Assembly (NCBI GenBank): GCA_937958045.1
Contig: CALFXL010000028.1
Location: forward strand, 19,992-83,991
Source of the DNA: an uncultured Opitutaceae bacterium
GTDB lineage: Bacteria; Verrucomicrobiota; Verrucomicrobiia; Opitutales; Opitutaceae
Reading direction: 5' to 3'
Length of the DNA stretch: 64,000 nucleotides
The notes beneath the pieces are model-generated. The model was not told the DNA's origin and ran no database searches. It saw only the letters and a program-made list of their open reading frames with translations. A program made the translations under genes and the position numbers. This document shows positions 688-34,959 of this stretch, piece after piece (within the stretch, counting starts at the first letter, position 1; each line of letters starts with the position of its first letter).

Positions 688-3315
688 TCAGATCGACGCC
701 GAGAACGTGCAGTGGAAGGTGCGACCGAGCGGCGATCCTCCGCGGTAGCCGGACAAGGTGTCGGCGCGCGCAGGTTGTTCATCGAAGAGATTGCCGATGC
801 CGAAACCGATGCGGTACTGCGCGGCGCGCTTCGAGCGAAACGCTTGTTTGAGCCGCCAGCCGGCGTTGAGTGTGACGATCGTGCGTTCGGGCGTGTCTTC
901 GCCGCCGGGTCCCGCGTCGATGGCGGAGGTGTGATCGATACGCAGCGACGTCGACCACGCGCGATAACTCCAGCTTGTGGTGGCGCGAAATTCCCACTCA
1001 GGACGATCGGTTCGCGAACCGCCGTCGTGCACGAAGAGCACGCCCGGAGCGAGTTCGCGGCGATCCTCGAGAAGACGTTCGGCTGTCGTGGAAAAACGGA
1101 TACGACCGAAAGCGGTCGGCGGCGGTGCGTATTCGAGGTTGAGATCGAACGAGCGCGTTTCGCTGCGTCCGGAATTTCCAGGCGTGGTGTCGATCGAGAC
1201 GATCGCCCCAGGCCGGCCGAGTGCGATGTCTTCCGCCGTGGGCGCCGCGCGAACAATGCGGCTCGCGAAGGCCGCTTCGTTGTTCACGATATCTTGCGCG
1301 GAGAAACGGCGCTGGATGAGGTCTTCGCGTTCGCGAGAAAAATAGGTGCCGGAAAAGCGGAGGCCGCTCGCGAACGGTGGCTCAAGGGAAACGCCGAAGG
1401 ATTGGCGCGTGCTTTTTTCGCGTTCGAATTGAGCGAGATCGCGTACGATGATCTGCGTCTCCGTGGCGGTGTTGTCGCGTCGCGGATCGAGGATGGTTTC
1501 TTGCACGAGTGTCTCGCGACGATCGGAGACGTCGCGCGAGGGCATTGACGATTGCTCGGAGTGTCGCGCGCGGAAAAGCAGCGAACGCACGGGCGACCAA
1601 GTGAGCCCGATATCGTTGCCGCGGCCGTCGCTGCCGTCGTCCTGCGTCGAGTAGCGCGCGGACAAGCGGGCTTCGAGACGGTTGAGAAACGGAATCGCAT
1701 TTTTTCGCGACGTGAGGGGCAGATTGACCGATGCCGATGCATTGCGCGCGTGACTTTCGTACCGACTTTCCGGCGATTGTGCTCCGGGCGCGCCGCGCGA
1801 GATGCGCACACGTTCGTCCATCTGATAACCGCCACGCAATGCGAGTGTCACCGGACCAGCCCAAGTCTGCACGAGCGGACCGTTGGCGGAAAAATCGAAG
1901 CGCGTGTTGTCGCGTGTCGTATCGCTCGTGCGCGTGAATGCGAGAGATGGATAAAGATGAGTGTTAACCGGACCGGCAGCGGGATCGCCGAAGGGATTAA
2001 AACGTGTGGCCGGGTCGGAAGAACGCAGCGCTTCGGCCAGGCGATCGTGATCGAGATCGGTGGCGGTCTGCGCGGAATCGTCGCGGCGATACGCCATACC
2101 GCCCTGCCACGACCACGCGGAAATCTTTCCGTTGAAAGTGAGACCTGCTTGTGCGCGCTCGCTGCGCGAGGTCTGGCGCGTGGAACCGAACTCGGTGTGC
2201 ACGAAACCGACTTCGACGTCTTGGCCAAACGGATTGTACGCGGCAGGCACGAGTGTCTTCGACGACGCGGGGGAAACCGGAGGCGCGCCTATGCGATGCG
2301 ATTGGTTTTGAGAGAAAGAACCGCTGAGCGAGGCGCGCAGTTTGTGTCCAAAAATTGGATACGACGCGCTGAACGTGCTGCCGAGCTGGCGCGAGGGACT
2401 CATCAACTGGCGATAAGCCGCCGTATCGAAACGTCGCTGACCGGAAGCCTCGTTTCCCGCGGGAAGGAAGTCGCTCGCGGAGAGATTTTCGCCGGATTGT
2501 CCCTCGGGAACGAGCGCGACGGAAACAGGATTTCCCTCGACGTCGAAAAGACCGTTGAGCGAACCGCTTGCCGCGCGAATGACTGCGGGCGAACCCCAAG
2601 TCAGACGAAGATCGCTGCCGCCCCACACGGTGTGATCTTGATTGCTGGAGAAAGGCCGGTCAGTCGCGTCGAGTGCGTATCGCTTCGAGGCATTTATGCC
2701 GAAAAGCAGACGCAGCTTTCCGCGCACGACGGATGTGGAAAGACGCGTGCTGAGTTGTTCGCCTCCGCCGCCCGCAAAAGAACCGTCGAACTTCAGTCCG
2801 GCTTCGCCGCCTCGGTAATCTTTTTTCAAACGGATGTTGATGACACGTCCGGAGGATTGCGCGCCGTATTCGGGCATCGAACCTTCGCGGCTCACTTCGA
2901 CCTCCTCGATCATACCGAGCGGCAACGAAGACGGATCGATGTAAGCCGGTTCGCCATCGATCAACACGAGCACCTCCTCATCGCGACCGGCGCCGGGGAG
3001 TGTTTCGAAAAACTCGTTTAACGTGAACGAGCCGGTGTCCTCGATGTGCTGGCTATCGTAACGATCGCGTAGATCCGCGCCCTCGACATCGCTGCCAAAC
3101 AGACGATCGCCGCTGACCTTAAACGCCTCGAGCATCAGCGTCGGGGTTTCCGGGCCGACCAGATCGAGCGTTTGCGCGGATGCAAACGGGGTCGCGGCGA
3201 CAAGAAGACCGAGAATGGGACCGCCGATGCGGAAAAAGAAAGAGAAAGCTGGCGGAAGTGGGCGTAGCATGGAGCGAACACGGCTCGCCAATAAACGAGC
3301 GATGGACGTCAGCAT
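688..3315 (-). CDS. TonB-dependent outer-membrane receptor (start could be 3315 or the ATG near 3270)
   Basis: 875-aa ORF with signal-like N-terminus, plug motifs LVLIDG, IEEVEV and GRVINIRLK, barrel-type C-terminus (GIGNLFD...GRTF) ending in a hydrophobic residue. Confidence 0.85.
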   Translation of the reverse strand: MLTSIARLLASRVRSMLRPLPPAFSFFFRIGGPILGLLVAATPFASAQTLDLVGPETPTLMLEAFKVSGDRLFGSDVEGADLRDRYDSQHIEDTGSFTLNEFFETLPGAGRDEEVLVLIDGEPAYIDPSSLPLGMIEEVEVSREGSMPEYGAQSSGRVINIRLKKDYRGGEAGLKFDGSFAGGGGEQLSTRLSTSVVRGKLRLLFGINASKRYALDATDRPFSSNQDHTVWGGSDLRLTWGSPAVIRAASGSLNGLFDVEGNPVSVALVPEGQSGENLSASDFLPAGNEASGQRRFDTAAYRQLMSPSRQLGSTFSASYPIFGHKLRASLSGSFSQNQSHRIGAPPVSPASSKTLVPAAYNPFGQDVEVGFVHTEFGSTRQTSRSERAQAGLTFNGKISAWSWQGGMAYRRDDSAQTATDLDHDRLAEALRSSDPATRFNPFGDPAAGPVNTHLYPSLAFTRTSDTTRDNTRFDFSANGPLVQTWAGPVTLALRGGYQMDERVRISRGAPGAQSPESRYESHARNASASVNLPLTSRKNAIPFLNRLEARLSARYSTQDDGSDGRGNDIGLTWSPVRSLLFRARHSEQSSMPSRDVSDRRETLVQETILDPRRDNTATETQIIVRDLAQFEREKSTRQSFGVSLEPPFASGLRFSGTYFSREREDLIQRRFSAQDIVNNEAAFASRIVRAAPTAEDIALGRPGAIVSIDTTPGNSGRSETRSFDLNLEYAPPPTAFGRIRFSTTAERLLEDRRELAPGVLFVHDGGSRTDRPEWEFRATTSWSYRAWSTSLRIDHTSAIDAGPGGEDTPERTIVTLNAGWRLKQAFRSKRAAQYRIGFGIGNLFDEQPARADTLSGYRGGSPLGRTFHCTFSASI

Positions 3316-3404
3316 AAGCGGCCGGAGCTTATCGTAGGATTATGCTGCGAGGCGAGCGGACGGTTCGGAGAGTTTTCCGCTACTCGGTCGGGCCCCGATC
3401 GGGG

Positions 3405-3540: not shown

Positions 3541-3581
3541 AAAAAAAGTTGGCCGGTCGCGTACCCCTACACGACCGGCCA
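3541..3581 (-). terminator. Intrinsic terminator
   Basis: On the minus strand a 14-bp stem (UGGCCGGUCGUGUA / UACGCGACCGGCCA, one G-U pair), GGGG loop, then ACUUUUUUU. Confidence 0.8.
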
Positions 3582-3605
3582 TTTGCTTTCTTAGTTACCC
3601 CAAAA

Positions 3606-3626
3606 TGTCAGCGCTAAGCGCTAACA
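3606..3626. promoter_or_regulatory. LacI-family-like operator palindrome
   Basis: TGTCAGCGC-TAA-GCGCTAACA resembles the TGTTAGCGCTAACA type of LacI-family site and sits just downstream of the predicted transcription start. Confidence 0.35.
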
Positions 3627-3634
3627 ACGGATGT

Positions 3635-3663
3635 ACTATCGGCACACCCTGGGGTTGGGTCAA
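3635..3663 (-). promoter_or_regulatory. Sigma70-like promoter
   Basis: Minus strand TTGACC (3663-3658), 17-nt spacer, GATAGT (3640-3635). Confidence 0.45.
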
Positions 3664-3794
3664 TCTCTCAGAAAATTCGTTAAGCGCGCTAATGTTCGCT
3701 GTAAGATAAACTGGTGTCCGCTTACGCGGAGACCCAAGCGGCTCCGCTGGAGCCTCTTGGGTCAGCGGCGCGAACCCGGTTTCCGCGCGAGACT

Positions 3795-4319
3795 TTACTT
3801 TTTCTTCGCGGCGGCCTTCTTGGCCGGGGGTTTGGCGGCTTTTTTGGCCGCGGGTTTTTTCTTCGCGGGCGCTTTTTTGGCGCCAGCGGACTTCGCGGTG
3901 CGTTTTTTCGGAGAAGCGGTTTTTTTCCGCGCGGTGGCCGGCGGGTTGAGCAATTCGGCGACGGGGATCTCGCGGGCGTCGCGCCAGAGATTTTCGAGCG
4001 CGTATTTTTTTCGGTTCTCCGGAGTGAACACGTGGATCATGATGTCGAACGCGTCGACAACCAGCCAGCCACTCTCGAGACCTTTTTCCATGCCGAGGAT
4101 CTTGGTGCCGGTGGCATCGATCACTTTTTCCAGTTCGACGCGGAGCGCGCGCAGGTGGGGTTCGGAGGTGCCGGTGGCGAGAATGAGGAAATCGGTGATG
4201 GAAGATTGCTCGGAAACATCGAGCACGCGGAGGTCGCCGGCCTTTTTTTCGTCGAGCGCCTTGCAGATCAAAGTCAGCAGCGGCGGGAGCGTGGCGGGCG
4301 AAGAGGAATCGGTATTCAT
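3795..4319 (-). CDS. rsfS: Ribosome silencing factor RsfS with a Lys/Ala/Pro-rich C-terminal tail
   Basis: ALDEKKAGDLRVLDV...TDFLILATG...WLVVDAFDIMIHVF...YALENLW; located downstream of nadD, the usual context. Confidence 0.95.
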   Translation of the reverse strand: MNTDSSSPATLPPLLTLICKALDEKKAGDLRVLDVSEQSSITDFLILATGTSEPHLRALRVELEKVIDATGTKILGMEKGLESGWLVVDAFDIMIHVFTPENRKKYALENLWRDAREIPVAELLNPPATARKKTASPKKRTAKSAGAKKAPAKKKPAAKKAAKPPAKKAAAKKK

Positions 4320-5226: not shown

Positions 5227-6789
5227 TCAGCTCACGCGTGTGACGGTGAGGTTTACGCTGCCGCGGTTGTTGCCATAAAAATGCCACGAGTCGTTGGCGA
5301 AGCCGTAGAGATAGCCGGCCTCGGTGGGTTTGATGAGCAATGGCTCTGTCGGACCGGCGCCGATGAAGAACGTCTGGTGCGGATAGGAGGAGCCGTCGGG
5401 ATTGGGATTGGTGCCGCGTTCAGGGCCGTCATTGGCGATGGCGCCCAGCAATGACAGCCAGGGATGATGCTCGCTGCGGCGCGTGCCGATAAGGTCGGCC
5501 TGCTCGTTTCCGGAGATCTTTTTGAACGCGCCCTCGAGTTTGCCGAAGAGCGAGCTGGCGACGTTGACGAGTTCGCCGAGCTTGAACTTGCCGTCGCGCG
5601 CGCCGCCGGGACCGCAAGGGACATTGCCATCGAGCCATTCACCGTCCGCTTGGAAAACATAACTGGCGCCTTCTTCGAGGAAGATACCGGTTTCGTTCCA
5701 ATGATTGCGCGCGTAGATCGGAATCGGCGCAGAACTCTCGCCGACTTTCAGGCGAACGCTCGGCTGATGATAAGGCGATTGGAAGACGGGCGGTTCTCGA
5801 TCGCGCTGCAGCGCCGAAGGATGGTACGGCTCGGATTCGACGAGGAGCGGACGATTGCGCGGGCGCGAGCGCAGAACTTTAAATCCGCCCTTGAGCGAAT
5901 CGTGGAGCAATCCCTGGAAGTCGGGACGTATTTGTTTTGTGAATACAGGGTTGAACGCGAGTCCCGCCTGACTGGCCTCCTCGATCATCCACTGCAACGC
6001 GATGTCGGAGAGCGCGCATTCGACATAACCGCCGCCGACATCGCTGTGCACGCCCGGGAACCAAATTTGGCGTACGCGCGCGTCGGGCCCGGAGTCGTTG
6101 AGGACGTGATCGTTTTCGTCGGTCCACAGTGTCGGCGTGAAGCTCGCGCGCATCTCGTCCATCGCGACGGCGTGGCGCGCGCGGATGATATGTTTGCCGA
6201 GAGTGGTGTCGTGGAAGGACCAGTTTTTCTCCTTATCGAGGAGATTGAGGATCGCGAAGTCGTCGGGTAAACCGAGCGAGCCGACAGTGTCCCACACGCC
6301 GAGAAACTCGATGGTGGGCGTGTTGAAAGCCCAGGCGGCGTCGCGCCATGTTTCGCTGCGTTTGCGATAGCCTTCGGCGTAGGCCTTTTCGACGCGGGCC
6401 CACGCTTCGCTCGGGCCGAGGCCATCGAGCGCGAGCAAACCGCAGCGGCCGATGAAACCGGCGAGGCTGCGCGCGGTGTAGGCGCCGCGACTGAAACCGA
6501 AAAGGAAGATCTGGTCGCCGTCCTGGTAGTTGCGCGCGAGCCAATGGTACGCGCTCATGATGTTTTTATCGAGGCCCAGGCCGACGGCTCCACCGAGCGC
6601 GCGTTGAAGCGGACCGCCATCGGTGCCGACGCCGGGATGATAATATTTCAGCTGTTCGGTGCCGTCCGTGGAGGTGGCGGCGACGCAATTGTGCAGACGG
6701 ACGACGTTGGTGAGGGAAGGCACGTCGTTGTCGTCTTTGTTGTCGGCGGTATTCCAAGTGCCGTCGCAGGAAACGATGAGTTTTTTCAT
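5227..6789 (-). CDS. DUF2235 (Tle1-like alpha/beta-hydrolase, putative phospholipase) with an extra C-terminal beta-sandwich domain
   Basis: KKLIVSCDGTWN, FGFSRGAYTARSLAG (GxSxG), LGVWDTV, WFPGVHSDVGGGY. ATG 6789 preferred over TTG 6804. Confidence 0.9.
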   Translation of the reverse strand: MKKLIVSCDGTWNTADNKDDNDVPSLTNVVRLHNCVAATSTDGTEQLKYYHPGVGTDGGPLQRALGGAVGLGLDKNIMSAYHWLARNYQDGDQIFLFGFSRGAYTARSLAGFIGRCGLLALDGLGPSEAWARVEKAYAEGYRKRSETWRDAAWAFNTPTIEFLGVWDTVGSLGLPDDFAILNLLDKEKNWSFHDTTLGKHIIRARHAVAMDEMRASFTPTLWTDENDHVLNDSGPDARVRQIWFPGVHSDVGGGYVECALSDIALQWMIEEASQAGLAFNPVFTKQIRPDFQGLLHDSLKGGFKVLRSRPRNRPLLVESEPYHPSALQRDREPPVFQSPYHQPSVRLKVGESSAPIPIYARNHWNETGIFLEEGASYVFQADGEWLDGNVPCGPGGARDGKFKLGELVNVASSLFGKLEGAFKKISGNEQADLIGTRRSEHHPWLSLLGAIANDGPERGTNPNPDGSSYPHQTFFIGAGPTEPLLIKPTEAGYLYGFANDSWHFYGNNRGSVNLTVTRVS

Positions 6790-7397
6790 AGGGGGTATGT
6801 TCAACCTCTGTCCCCGTGGGGTGGACGGATGTCAACCGGAGGGATCCCCGAAGAGTTCCGCGGAAACGGAACGGCTGTTTCGCAGAACTTCGGAAACCCT
6901 CCAGCCAGCAGGCCGCGCGCCGATCGTATCCAAAATTTTGCTACGCGTTCGTTACGCGATGCGGAGGGCATTGCTAAAGGGGGAATTTACCGCCGGCGAC
7001 GGCGGAAGAAGTTGGCGAATGTCTGTATCCAGCGAGACCCGCGCCTCCGGGCGGGAGGCGGATGCGGCGGAAAACTATCGTAGCGCTCGCGTAGTTGACG
7101 GAGAACGAGCGTGTAAAGCGATTGGAACTGCATGCGCCGAGCTTACCCGGACGAATGCGGACGGGGCAGATACAGCGGCGTTGATGATAACGCTCTACAC
7201 GCGCGTTTTTAACAAACTGATCCGTTTGCTGAAGCGAACGACTGTATAGGGACGCCTCGGTGAATATGAGCGAGTGACCTTACCGGCGAAGGCTTGTAGG
7301 TGGTCACAAAAAACTCTCTGCCGCGGAGTCGCGACAGAGAGTTATCGGAGAACTTCGCCAGCCCAGTTGGCGGGCGAGTTGACGAGACTAAGCTCGC

Positions 7398-9794
7398 TTA
7401 GAAGCGCCAGCCGAGGCCACCGCGGAGAGCGATGGTCTGATCGACGATGCTGTTGTTGTCGTTGCCGTAGCTGGCGAAGAGCGAGAGGCCGTTGTTATAG
7501 TTAACAGAGACGCCGCCCTCGATGTGCCAGCCGTCGCGATCAGGATTGCGCGAATAAACCGTCAGGTGTTCGCCCATAACCGCGGCGCCAATCGGACGGT
7601 TTTCGGTCGTCGTGTCGCGTTGGAAATAGACGTTCAAGAAGGGACGGATTTCGGCGGTGTTCTTAATAATCGAGAAACTGCGAGCGATCTGCACGCCGAA
7701 CGAGAGCAGGAGAGAGTCGGCGCTTTGCTCGTCGACAATGAGCGTGGCTTGGTTGGCATTGCCGGTTTCGCGGAACGCGTCGGCTTCCCACTTGATGAAG
7801 TGTGCGCCGACGGTCGGAGCGACATCGATCCACGAGAAGCCGAGCTTGTAGCTGGCCTGCGCGCGGACGCCGTAGTGCGTGCCGTCGGTGTCGGCCTTGG
7901 CGAAGGTGCCGAGACGCGAGAGGCGGACGCTGCGGTCGGCGGAGTAGCTGTCGGTGCCATAGGTACCGATCGCGTTCACTTGGAAGGCGCCGTTACGATA
8001 ACGACCGTAGACACCGAAGGTGTTGCTCTTCGAGGTGCTGGTGCTGCCGGAATCGTCGAGGCGGAATTCCGTTTTGTCGTGCGTATAAACGAGACCCGCG
8101 AGGAACGAGGGCGAGAACGCGTAGTCAGCGCCGAGGATCAACTGTTCGGGACTGAAATCATAATATTCATTATAATCAGAAGCCGAGACCGTGGATTCGA
8201 AACGGGAAACCTGTGTATAGAAATCCAGCTTCTTGGTGGCGCGGAACTCTTGATCAGGCACGGCGAGGCGATGTTCGATGCTGGTACCCAGCGCGGCGGA
8301 TTGTACCAGCGCGGCGGAATACCATGCTTGATACGACTGCGGGCCGAGCTGATTGAGGACCTTGCCGTACGCAGACGCGGTGATCTGCGCGTCCGCAGCG
8401 CGAATGAGATCGTCGGGCAGTGCGGAACCGAGCTTGTCGAAGACCGTGGCGATGGCGGTTTGATTGCGTGTGATGCCCGCGACGTCGGCAAAGGGGTTGC
8501 GAATAACGTCGACCCAGATCTCGAAGCCGCCAGCCACCGCTTCGACGCGATACTTGGCGGTAGACGCCATGGCGAACACCTGAGGATTATCGATCTCAGG
8601 AATGTTGCCCAGGTAATCGCCATTGATAGAGATGATTTTATAGCTCTCGGTTTTAACGACAAAATCATCGCTATTGACCGCACCCACTGAAATGGCGCCG
8701 CCGGCGGTGAAGTCCACCTGGCCATTGATGAGGAGTTGGTCGTGGTCGTTCGGAGCCGATGTGAAGAAATCCAGACTGATCACACCGCGTTCACCGGGTT
8801 TTACGTTGCCATTGACGGTGAGCGTGCCGCGGTCGGCTTTGTTGCCGCCGGCGCCGAGCGTGGCTTTGCCATTACCGCCGGTTAGCTCGATATTACCGTT
8901 AATCACGCCGCTACCGCCGATATAGGCGTTGCCGGAGTTGCCGACGCCGAAGTTGCCGTTGTGCACGCCATCCACTATGTAGGAGGAAGTCGAACGGAAC
9001 GTCATGATGCCGGGCAGGTTGGCCGTGCCGGTGACCAGCGTAGTTCCCGCGCCGTATTTTTGATAGGCGGTGGTCGCGCTGGAAGTGGAGGTGATGGTGC
9101 CGGCCCAGACTTCGACTTCGTTAGCGAGATTCAACGCGCTCAACGAGCCGATGGGACGCGAACCGAGATCAACGCTGGATGTTGCATCGAAGCTCAATCC
9201 ACCAATCGACACGTTACCAGCGGTCAGTCCGCGGTAATCGATCGTGGAGTGATCCGTCATCACAATCTTGGCATACCCGAGGCCCGACGTGCTGGAAGCG
9301 CCACCGGCGAGCGTGGAATTCACGTTGTCAAACGTGATGGTGGCGTAGGACTTCAGGTTAAGATAAAACGGATTGCGGTCGGCGGCGGCGCCGGTGGATG
9401 TGCCGTCGCCATCTGTTTTCCACGGGTGAGTGCCGCGGCCGGTGATATTATAATAGAGGCGGCCGGCGGAGTTGCCCTGTAGATTGAGCGTATATCCGTA
9501 ATCGTTTTCCGTTGTTATCGAGAAGACGCGATAGGTCACGTCGCCCGATCCATTATGCGTGAGGTTGATGGTGCGATTGGGTGCGGCATTCGTAAACGAA
9601 ATGCCGGTGTTGCCGTCGGGAACGGCACCATTGCTCCAATTGGCGGTGTTGAGATAGTCGGAGTCTACACCGAGCCAGTTGACTTTGGATGTAAGAGTAT
9701 ATTGAGCGAAACCTGCAGATGCAGTCAGCAAGCCGGCAAGCACGCCCAGAAGGGGCCGCTTGGCGGAGTGCTTAAGCGAAAGTTTATTATTCAT
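7398..9794 (-). CDS. Autotransporter (passenger with beta-strand repeat plus C-terminal beta-barrel)
   Basis: Signal peptide, Gly/Asn/Thr-rich passenger with QKYGAGTTLVTG repeat, linker NQTAIATV...LNQLGPQSY, barrel ending in GLGWRF. Confidence 0.9.
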   Translation of the reverse strand: MNNKLSLKHSAKRPLLGVLAGLLTASAGFAQYTLTSKVNWLGVDSDYLNTANWSNGAVPDGNTGISFTNAAPNRTINLTHNGSGDVTYRVFSITTENDYGYTLNLQGNSAGRLYYNITGRGTHPWKTDGDGTSTGAAADRNPFYLNLKSYATITFDNVNSTLAGGASSTSGLGYAKIVMTDHSTIDYRGLTAGNVSIGGLSFDATSSVDLGSRPIGSLSALNLANEVEVWAGTITSTSSATTAYQKYGAGTTLVTGTANLPGIMTFRSTSSYIVDGVHNGNFGVGNSGNAYIGGSGVINGNIELTGGNGKATLGAGGNKADRGTLTVNGNVKPGERGVISLDFFTSAPNDHDQLLINGQVDFTAGGAISVGAVNSDDFVVKTESYKIISINGDYLGNIPEIDNPQVFAMASTAKYRVEAVAGGFEIWVDVIRNPFADVAGITRNQTAIATVFDKLGSALPDDLIRAADAQITASAYGKVLNQLGPQSYQAWYSAALVQSAALGTSIEHRLAVPDQEFRATKKLDFYTQVSRFESTVSASDYNEYYDFSPEQLILGADYAFSPSFLAGLVYTHDKTEFRLDDSGSTSTSKSNTFGVYGRYRNGAFQVNAIGTYGTDSYSADRSVRLSRLGTFAKADTDGTHYGVRAQASYKLGFSWIDVAPTVGAHFIKWEADAFRETGNANQATLIVDEQSADSLLLSFGVQIARSFSIIKNTAEIRPFLNVYFQRDTTTENRPIGAAVMGEHLTVYSRNPDRDGWHIEGGVSVNYNNGLSLFASYGNDNNSIVDQTIALRGGLGWRF

Positions 9795-18951: not shown

Positions 18952-19156
18952 GGGGTATGGGGTTGGGGTAATGCCCGTGGACGGCCGCATAGGTACACGC
19001 GCCCGCCAAGAGCGATTAGGGGTAAGTGCCGGTAGCCGGCACGGGCACAGCGGACTCAGATTCGCCGTTTTCACAAAAACCGGTGAGTCGTACAGTCAGT
19101 TTGGTAAAGTCATTTGCGCTTCGTGCCGTTGGGATGAGTTGGTCCTTTTTACGATT

Positions 19157-23113
<3,957 letters not shown>

Positions 23114-34592: not shown

Positions 34593-34959
34593 GACTTTTG
34601 GGGTGATTCGGCGAGCGGGGTAGTGCCGGAAGCGACGTCTCGCCGGCCATCGCGGCCGGTTGTCACCCCTTCATGCGCTGTCTCGAGTCAAAACCCGTCA
34701 TCGTGAAGATGCGTGCGTAAGTTTTCCGGTGGACGTATCGGTGAAAAATCGGACGGCCGGGGACGAACCGGGATCCTCCCGGATGCTTGGCGTCCCGAAA
34801 TTGTATCGAGTTTTTCAATACCACGGGAACGTGGTGATTGCGCGTAGCGTTCGCGGACACGCCTCTTACGGTACGACGTCCGACGTTCTCTGTTGAGTGG
34901 CGTAAACACGCATCTCGTGATGCCTTTCCGCGTCTTTGTTACGTGGGCGATGCCCTTAG

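Follow-up and report, generated by a model that had tools for sequence, protein, structure and literature searches.

A Putative Multi-Copy Small RNA Family With Twin GGGGUA Motifs in Opitutales

Introduction

LhrC1-5, RsaE/RoxS, 6C, and CcsR are bacterial small RNAs (sRNAs) that present one short motif both in a single-stranded stretch and in the terminator loop. The motifs of all of these RNAs are C-rich and are aimed at G-rich ribosome-binding sites; the UCCC motif of LhrC1-5 in Listeria monocytogenes, for instance, pairs with purine-rich Shine-Dalgarno regions. CsrB and RsmZ act as sponges of CsrA through several GGA motifs in hairpin loops.

Verrucomicrobiota abound in soil, water, and guts, where they degrade polysaccharides. 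To our knowledge, no small RNA has been characterized in this phylum, and a literature search found none. The locus described here lies in a stretch of 64,000 nucleotides (the window) from an uncultured member of the Opitutaceae, one often encountered in compost metagenomes. An original prediction from the letters of the window had placed an sRNA gene on its minus strand. Positions 3541-3628 of that strand are very probably the gene for an ~88-nt sRNA, a type-B paralogue of an undescribed family of Opitutales/Opitutaceae. The hexamer GGGGUA appears twice in this RNA as well, in the single-stranded part (UUGGGGUAAC) and again at the apex of the terminator (UAGGGGUA).

The sRNA Gene and Its Parts

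The gene consists of the following parts, given in the order of transcription and by position in the window.

3669-3694, minus strand: conserved upstream block CATTAGCGCGCTTAACGAATTTTCTG, directly 5′ of the -35
3635-3663, minus strand: sigma-70-like promoter from a consensus scan, with the -35 TTGACC at 3663-3658, a 17-nt spacer, and the -10 GATAGT at 3640-3635
3628, minus strand: predicted transcription start, a G seven nt past the -10, placed by promoter geometry; interspecies conservation begins here
3606-3626, minus strand: 5′ hairpin P1, UGUUAGCGC-UUA-GCGCUGACA, from the fold and the paralogue stems; the full 21-nt palindrome is UGUUAGCGCUUAGCGCUGACA
3582-3605, minus strand: single-stranded purine-rich linker UUUUGGGGUAACUAAGAAAGCAAA, with the first GGGGUA motif at 3601-3596
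3550-3581, minus strand: intrinsic terminator hairpin from a terminator scan, with a 14-bp stem, a GGGG tetraloop, and the second GGGGUA at 3567-3562
3541-3549, minus strand: AC and then a U7 tract, where the RNA is expected to end; interspecies conservation stops here

The original prediction had read a promoter, a palindrome, a G-rich single strand, and a terminator from the minus strand, and we recovered all four at the positions above. The promoter TTGACC-N17-GATAGT is the sole sigma-70-like match of the consensus scan in the 1.8 kb between 2800 and 4600, where 0.3 are expected. The upstream block CATTAGCGCGCTTAACGAATTTTCTG is nearly invariant among the three orthologous type-B loci that are linked to a receptor-like gene (the window, L011, and L020; the two types are described below), and the promoter spacer diverges in the same loci. 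The block is a candidate UP element (a UP-like A/T stretch) or a candidate site for an activator or other regulator. Type-A copies likewise have A/T-rich DNA upstream of the -35. Within the RNA, the single-stranded stretch AUUUUGGGGUAAC occupies 3605-3594, and a AAGAAAGCAAA stretch is present in addition to the U7 tail. The terminator loop had been expected to read GGGGUA as well, and this was confirmed, the 14-bp stem (3581-3550) being closed by a GGGG loop and followed by seven U.

A leader peptide or other small ORF was considered and rejected. The frame opened by the AUG in the linker enters the terminator, past which the sequence is unconserved, and indels in the 5′ tail of family members break the reading frames.

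Upstream of the sRNA, on the same strand, are nadD and rsfS. The rsfS gene encodes a long Lys/Ala-rich C-terminal tail (KKAAKKP... repeats; 3795-3900, minus strand) that attracts spurious low-complexity read matches. Directly past its stop codon is a GC-rich hairpin without a U-tract (3719-3772), which is at noise level against a miRNA model on both strands and could mark the 3′ end of rsfS, either as a Rho-dependent terminator or as a structural element.

Fold, Strand, and Covariation

The 89-nt RNA folds at -43.8 kcal/mol, compared with -24.4 ± 2.8 kcal/mol for shuffles (z = -6.96). Its G-U pairs fit the minus strand only, as had been predicted. A covariance model of the family scores 99 bits on the minus strand vs. 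24 bits on the plus strand, and pairs and scores together fix the strand. The covariance model is ready for use in annotation.

Covariation was assessed with RNAalifold and by a count on the model-based alignment of 73 copies, 51 of them distinct. Standard pairs fill 99.3% of the alignment cells. Changes on both sides were found in 8 of the 21 pairs (5/7 in P1 and 3/14 in the terminator), the covariation score was reached by none of 500 shuffles, and a control in which the partners were slid by 1-3 columns retained just 0-2 both-sided pairs. Among the paralogues, the P1 stems include CUCCCGC/GCGGGAG, CUCCUGC/GCAGGAG, CUACCGC/GCGGUAG, and others, and the closing U-A pair of the terminator is lost jointly in the tandem copies of termite-gut contigs. 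Covariation in related genomes had been suggested as a check on the prediction, and the compensatory changes support both hairpins. A pairing of the 5′ tail with GGGG in type-A copies is possible in the fold, is unsupported by the variation of the tail, and was rejected.

Operators of the LacI family are even palindromes with a central CG; they are conserved as DNA and usually occur with further copies or a cognate regulator nearby. A LacI-like palindrome had been proposed at 3606-3626. The palindrome is there, but it is the 5′ hairpin of the RNA and not an operator, since the unit is conserved from the predicted start, the flanks diverge, and the stem pairs change compensatorily. It is an odd 21-mer centered on T/A, lacks the central CG, and contains a G-U pair, and the paralogues alter its sequence yet keep its pairing. 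We did not find a further occurrence of it within the 64-kb window or a LacI-family domain among the 20 window proteins scanned. As the palindrome fails as a LacI-type operator, we see no evidence for the sugar regulation that had been built on it.

Distribution, Copy Number, and Conservation

A scan of a metagenome collection with the 23-mer GGGGTAACTAAGAAAGCAAATGG found 86 loci/contigs from fen, soil, rhizosphere, lakes, Antarctic sites, and termite gut. All 86 have the 5′ hairpin and the terminator, and a TTGAC(C/G) -35 lies at the matching distance in essentially every member. The unit measures ~89 nt and is identical or near-identical among metagenome contigs. Across P1, the linker, and the terminator, column identity is 0.91-1.0; it falls to 0.43-0.53 upstream of the start and past the U-tract. 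The same boundaries are seen in the closest genome available, the Opitutaceae MAG CAZNJG01, which was the one relative obtained in a search of genome contigs with the receptor-like protein encoded next to the sRNA (86% identical). In this MAG, the segment from GUUGUUAGCGC to GGCCAACUU is 100% identical to the window, and the promoter spacer and the DNA past the U-tract have diverged. Contigs from soil, leaf-litter, and organism-labelled runs match 3541-3629 or 3541-3605 exactly and then pass into unrelated flanks.

The family is multi-copy. A second copy (L045) is on the source organism's own 652-kb contig. In one genome run the contigs break at the element, where the summed depth is ~92 vs. 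~13 per single copy, giving about seven copies in one sequenced organism. The copies are of two types. The majority are type A, with a 5′ tail of ~16-20 nt (AUCAGAUUUUUCACUU), P1 as CUCCCGC-CUA-GCGGGAG, and the apex GCUUA-GGGG-UAGGC. Type B comprises the window copy, L011, L020, L042, L066, and L087; it is without the tail, and has P1 as GUUAGCGC-UUA-GCGCUGAC and the apex GUGUA-GGGG-UAC(G/A)C. Four termite-gut contigs (L036, L079, L091, and L092) carry tandem pairs of the sRNA, 260-890 nt apart. Each tandem copy has its own A/T-rich upstream region and -35, and the upstream copy is without the closing U-A pair of the terminator.

Because the 23-mer biases the sample toward invariant linkers, we used the neighboring protein YgfZ for independent sampling. 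By this route the RNA was found between ygfZ and aroG, with an identical core, in Nibricoccus aquaticus HZ-65 (at about 2,560,704-2,560,792 of CP023344.1, co-oriented with aroG), in a Rariglobus MAG, and in one further MAG. The linker UUUUGGGGUAACUAAGAAAGCAAA is identical in all copies of the 23-mer scan and in the three copies of the YgfZ route. Identity of YgfZ among the carriers is 39-60%, and ~70 nt of the RNA are nearly invariant across the same hosts; the RNA is therefore far better conserved than this neighbor. As N. aquaticus is cultured, the family is directly testable there.

In more distant Opitutales, the RNA is absent from the ygfZ spacer in five loci. One distant locus (L102) has a divergent copy, GCGUUUCUCCUUAAUAAGGGAGACUUGGGGUAACUGAUUGAGAGGAAUACAAUGUGGCAGGUUGUCUAGGGGUAGGCAACCUGCCUUUUU (40.8 bits, E = 2e-8). 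In this copy, P1 and the lower stem of the terminator have other sequences with compensatory changes, and the linker deviates in its A-rich part. What the copy retains, besides the structure, is CUUGGGGUAACU in the linker and CUAGGGGUAGGC at the terminator apex, which makes the two GGGGUA contexts the conserved functional core. The emphasis that the original prediction had laid on GGGGUA was well placed, as both motifs are the most deeply conserved letters of the RNA, retained even in this copy.

Rfam 15 has no family match for the window copy or for the Nibricoccus copy (gathering-score scan of the whole window; the locus and the Nibricoccus copy at E up to 10, with nothing but noise), and searching the literature by keyword and by the sequence itself gave no description of the RNA. 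The proposed stand-alone sRNA gene on the minus strand stands, with its own promoter and terminator, a conserved unit, and covarying hairpins. We are highly confident that the family is an independent, structured RNA gene and a new sRNA family. It is widespread, from fen, soil, lake, Antarctic, termite-gut, and compost samples, it is present in multiple copies, and it far exceeds the adjacent protein genes in conservation.

In runs labelled as metatranscriptomes (soil, leaf litter, and peat), the core is seen only as assembler contigs, several of which include promoter or downstream sequence. These contigs break where the paralogues diverge, and transcript ends are not definable from them. None of the RNA runs holds the specific flanks of the source species. 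A discrete sRNA transcript is predicted to accumulate.

Neighboring Genes and a Possible Leader Function

Two features of the window lie downstream of the sRNA.

3316-3395, minus strand: promoter-like block and short leader of the receptor-like gene itself, ...CCGAACCGTCCGCTC...GCATAATCCTACGATAAGCTC...TT-ATG, outside the RNA and conserved in the window, L011, and L020
688-3315, minus strand: TonB-receptor-like outer-membrane protein of 875 aa, the downstream neighbor of the sRNA, with a weak match to Pfam Plug (E = 0.004)

No Pfam family was found above threshold for the 875-aa protein, which may represent a divergent family of TonB-dependent transporters. Orthologues of it follow the type-B copy in L011 and L020. 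Genes further along the window encode a TonB receptor, an autotransporter, and a Tle1-like lipase, as well as a PL11 rhamnogalacturonan lyase (next to a hybrid sensor kinase) and the GH43-CBM13 and GH2 proteins. The Tle1-like phospholipase domain protein adjoins the autotransporter beta-domain protein and the CarboxypepD_reg-type TonB receptor (5227-6804 and 7398-9794, both minus strand), and the hybrid sensor kinase (about 19100-23113, plus strand) is divergent from PL11.

Across the family, ~50 loci have a ygfZ-like gene in divergent orientation, ~40 nt past the -35, and 47 have a class-I DAHP synthase gene (aroG type) downstream on the same strand. Other downstream genes are receptor-like in three loci, ribBA in one, and panB in one, and one copy faces a convergent helicase-like gene. 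A co-oriented gene thus comes after nearly every copy, as would be expected of a cis-acting leader or attenuator, in which the promoter would read into the downstream gene and a factor or ligand would regulate the terminator. Some RNA-labelled contigs do extend past the terminator, and the U-tracts of some family members are short or interrupted. However, the downstream genes are functionally unrelated. The 44 distinct spacers from the terminator to aroG (L012-L097 and L098) range in length between 64 and 254 nt, and a second intrinsic terminator is present in many of them. The conserved block GCTTGC(C)-N17-(C)CAAT(T), whose end is ~10 nt from the ATG, is shared by all 44 and points to a separate aroG promoter with a leaderless or very-short-leader mRNA. 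The receptor-like gene likewise has its own conserved block beyond a spacer of ~150 nt that is unalignable among the window, L011, and L020, while its ATG at 3315 is conserved. An attenuator role is unlikely because aroG and the receptor-like gene have their own conserved promoter-like blocks. An attenuator of aroG in particular was considered for the 47 loci with DAHP synthase downstream and was rejected on the promoter-like block, the variable spacing, and the extra terminators.

Other features of an attenuator or riboswitch were also looked for. The downstream genes differ, separate promoter-like blocks and extra terminators are present, and inspection of the predicted folds showed no alternative antiterminator pairing; the terminator sequence itself is nearly invariant. 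Other copies precede ribBA or panB, face a convergent gene, or stand in tandem, so the unit behaves as a gene of its own, though some read-through may occur. We consider a leader function distinctly improbable.

Start Regions and the Proposed Glycanase Targets

Spelled out, the original prediction would have the RNA repressed by a LacI-family protein, responsive to sugar, and silencing GH43-CBM13 and PL11 through C-rich start regions. The start regions were examined at 71 well-defined start codons pooled from Opitutales loci and the window. In the 30 nt that precede the start codons, G is scarce (0.08-0.2) and C and U abound (e.g., window 18952-18975 and 34593-34630), in agreement with the prediction, and Shine-Dalgarno-like motifs are found in 5 of the 71. 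Judging from these sequences, the bacteria appear to initiate translation largely without Shine-Dalgarno pairing, and the family offers a way to study post-transcriptional control in such a phylum, which seemingly does so.

The two matches on which the glycanase targets were based, aatcaccccaaaagtcATG in the GH43 start region and cattaccccaa in the PL11 leader, both exist in the window, but they are within the background. A duplex-energy scan of both strands of the 64 kb ranked the GH43 site 138th of 21,320 windows (-16.4 kcal/mol) and the two PL11 sites 373rd and 739th. The complement of the 11-mer occurs 14 times with up to two mismatches, compared with 6.6 ± 2.8 expected, and 3 of the 14 are in the sRNA locus itself. 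Shuffled controls had been called for, and in these the complementarity of the start regions did not rise above shuffles. The linker scores -9.8 against the 71 start regions, shuffled linkers score -8.6 ± 1.0, and 12% of the shuffles are as good (p about 0.12). Against the antisense strands of the same regions the linker scores -9.5, i.e., the start regions are no better.

The hexamer TACCCC is rare in the window (12 sites). Several of them precede a start by no more than 45 nt: PL11 has three such sites, GH43 has one, and the Tle1-like lipase gene has one at 2 nt before the ATG. These sites and the C/U-rich start regions are what speaks for the glycanases as targets, along with the existence of the two matches. 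However, other C4-containing hexamers are similarly start-associated in the window, and we found no enrichment of TACCCC near starts in the pooled loci. The GH43 site is probably at or upstream of the 5′ end of the mRNA, if the gene shares the short-leader promoter geometry of aroG. The family is conserved in lineages from very different habitats, and glycanases, as accessory genes, are therefore unlikely to be its core targets. As to the proposed repressor, its would-be site shows the covariation of an RNA stem, has an odd center without CG, and is unique in the window, and the 20 scanned window proteins lack a LacI-family domain. Neither sugar control nor the glycanase targets (GH43 and PL11) are supported, and we consider a sugar-responsive silencer of these genes very unlikely.

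A 13-14-nt motif, CCGGCACT(T)ACCCC, occurs exactly twice in the 64 kb, where zero are expected (19019-19032 and 34617-34629, both minus strand). One copy precedes the PL11 ATG by ~65 nt and the other precedes the GH43-CBM13 ATG by ~24 nt; the motif may be a shared promoter or regulator site. The linker is also complementary at 12 of 13 positions to the 790 loop of 16S rRNA; this was judged to be at chance level and rejected.

Possible Modes of Action

The sRNA would be transcribed from its own sigma-70-like promoter and end at its own intrinsic terminator. The predicted product is a 5′ hairpin, a purine-rich single strand of ~25 nt, and a terminator hairpin. The twin G-rich motifs could base-pair in trans with UACCCC-type C-rich sites in other RNAs, and the A-rich stretch and the U-tail are a putative handle for a chaperone of the Hfq type. 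A G-rich seed of this kind, the mirror image of C-rich seeds, is possible. We regard trans action by base pairing through the twin GGGGUA motifs as the most likely mechanism, at about even odds, in which the pairing and any targets are putative. The lack of enrichment at start regions, for linker complementarity as for TACCCC, counts against it. Another point is the terminator loop, since a GGGG loop of 4 nt closed by a stem is a poor platform for pairing. A further one is the near-invariance of ~70 nt across hosts whose YgfZ proteins are 39-60% identical. This exceeds what a seed needs and hints at a protein or ribosomal partner. As the near-invariance is unexplained by the pairing model, it favors binding to a protein or a larger machine, which is the main rival to base pairing, though on the whole rather unlikely.

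In one form of this rival, the RNA would be a sponge or scaffold that titrates a protein, its two GGGGUA motifs (one in the loop and one in the single strand) being bound by a dimeric RNA-binding protein or a ribosomal component. The display of the same motif at the hairpin apex and in the linker would suit such a partner. The ~70 nearly invariant nt across distant hosts, beyond the usual needs of a base-pairing seed, would suit it as well, and target enrichment was not found. The genes are multi-copy, partly in tandem, and have A/T-rich upstream elements, and strongly promoted copies would supply the capacity for titration. On the other hand, there are just two sites per RNA, no GGA motif is in a loop, so the RNA is not of the CsrA type, and no candidate protein is linked to it in the neighborhood. 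We hold the sponge or scaffold to be rather unlikely. In another form, to which we give slightly less credence, the RNA would be no ordinary seed-pairing sRNA; it would belong to the housekeeping RNAs of Opitutales, being multi-copy and near-invariant. The twin GGGGUA motifs would then contact a conserved cellular machine, such as the apparatus for Shine-Dalgarno-independent initiation at these G-poor, C/U-rich start regions, or a dimeric RNA-binding protein, and the RNA would serve as a global decoy or modulator of translation.

Comparison With Known Small RNAs

CsrB, RsmY, and RsmZ share with the Opitutales RNA a short G-rich motif repeated in loops and linkers, multiple paralogues, and strong promoters. 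They differ in their defining GGA in a loop, which we did not find in the Opitutales RNA, where the loops are UUA/CUA and GGGG and there are two sites per RNA. GcvB of Enterobacteria is alike in its G/U-rich single-stranded seed against C/A-rich elements near start codons, in its divergent orientation from the neighboring gene, and in its high conservation. However, GcvB is ~200 nt long, its neighbor gcvA encodes its regulator, and it is without a repeated hexamer and without homology to the Opitutales RNA.

AbcR1/2 (alpha-r15) of Alphaproteobacteria had been named in the original prediction. Like the Opitutales RNA, these sRNAs are paralogous, have two exposed seed motifs and a terminator, and keep a conserved intergenic position. 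They belong to another clade and have C-rich anti-Shine-Dalgarno seeds vs. the G-rich motifs here, and the neighbor here is ygfZ, with no adjacent LysR-type regulator. Taken as kinship the comparison does not hold, as there is no Rfam match at the gathering score or at E up to 10.

LhrC1-5 also share features with the Opitutales RNA. Both families are ~100 nt, multi-copy, and partly in tandem, each copy has its own promoter and intrinsic terminator, and a short motif is repeated in a loop, a single strand, and the terminator loop. The motifs are of opposite polarity (UCCC in LhrC vs. GGGGUA here), and the families are from different phyla and are without similarity in sequence or in Rfam. RsaE/RoxS of Bacillota and 6C RNA of Actinomycetota are likewise conserved at the level of class or phylum, expose a repeated homopolymer-rich motif twice, and have covarying stems with invariant motifs. 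Their motifs are C-rich and face G-rich ribosome-binding sites, whereas the motifs here are G-rich and the start regions G-poor, again with no Rfam match. By architecture, the closest analogues are thus LhrC1-5, RsaE/RoxS, 6C, and CcsR, and the Opitutales RNA would be their G-rich counterpart in genomes without Shine-Dalgarno sites.
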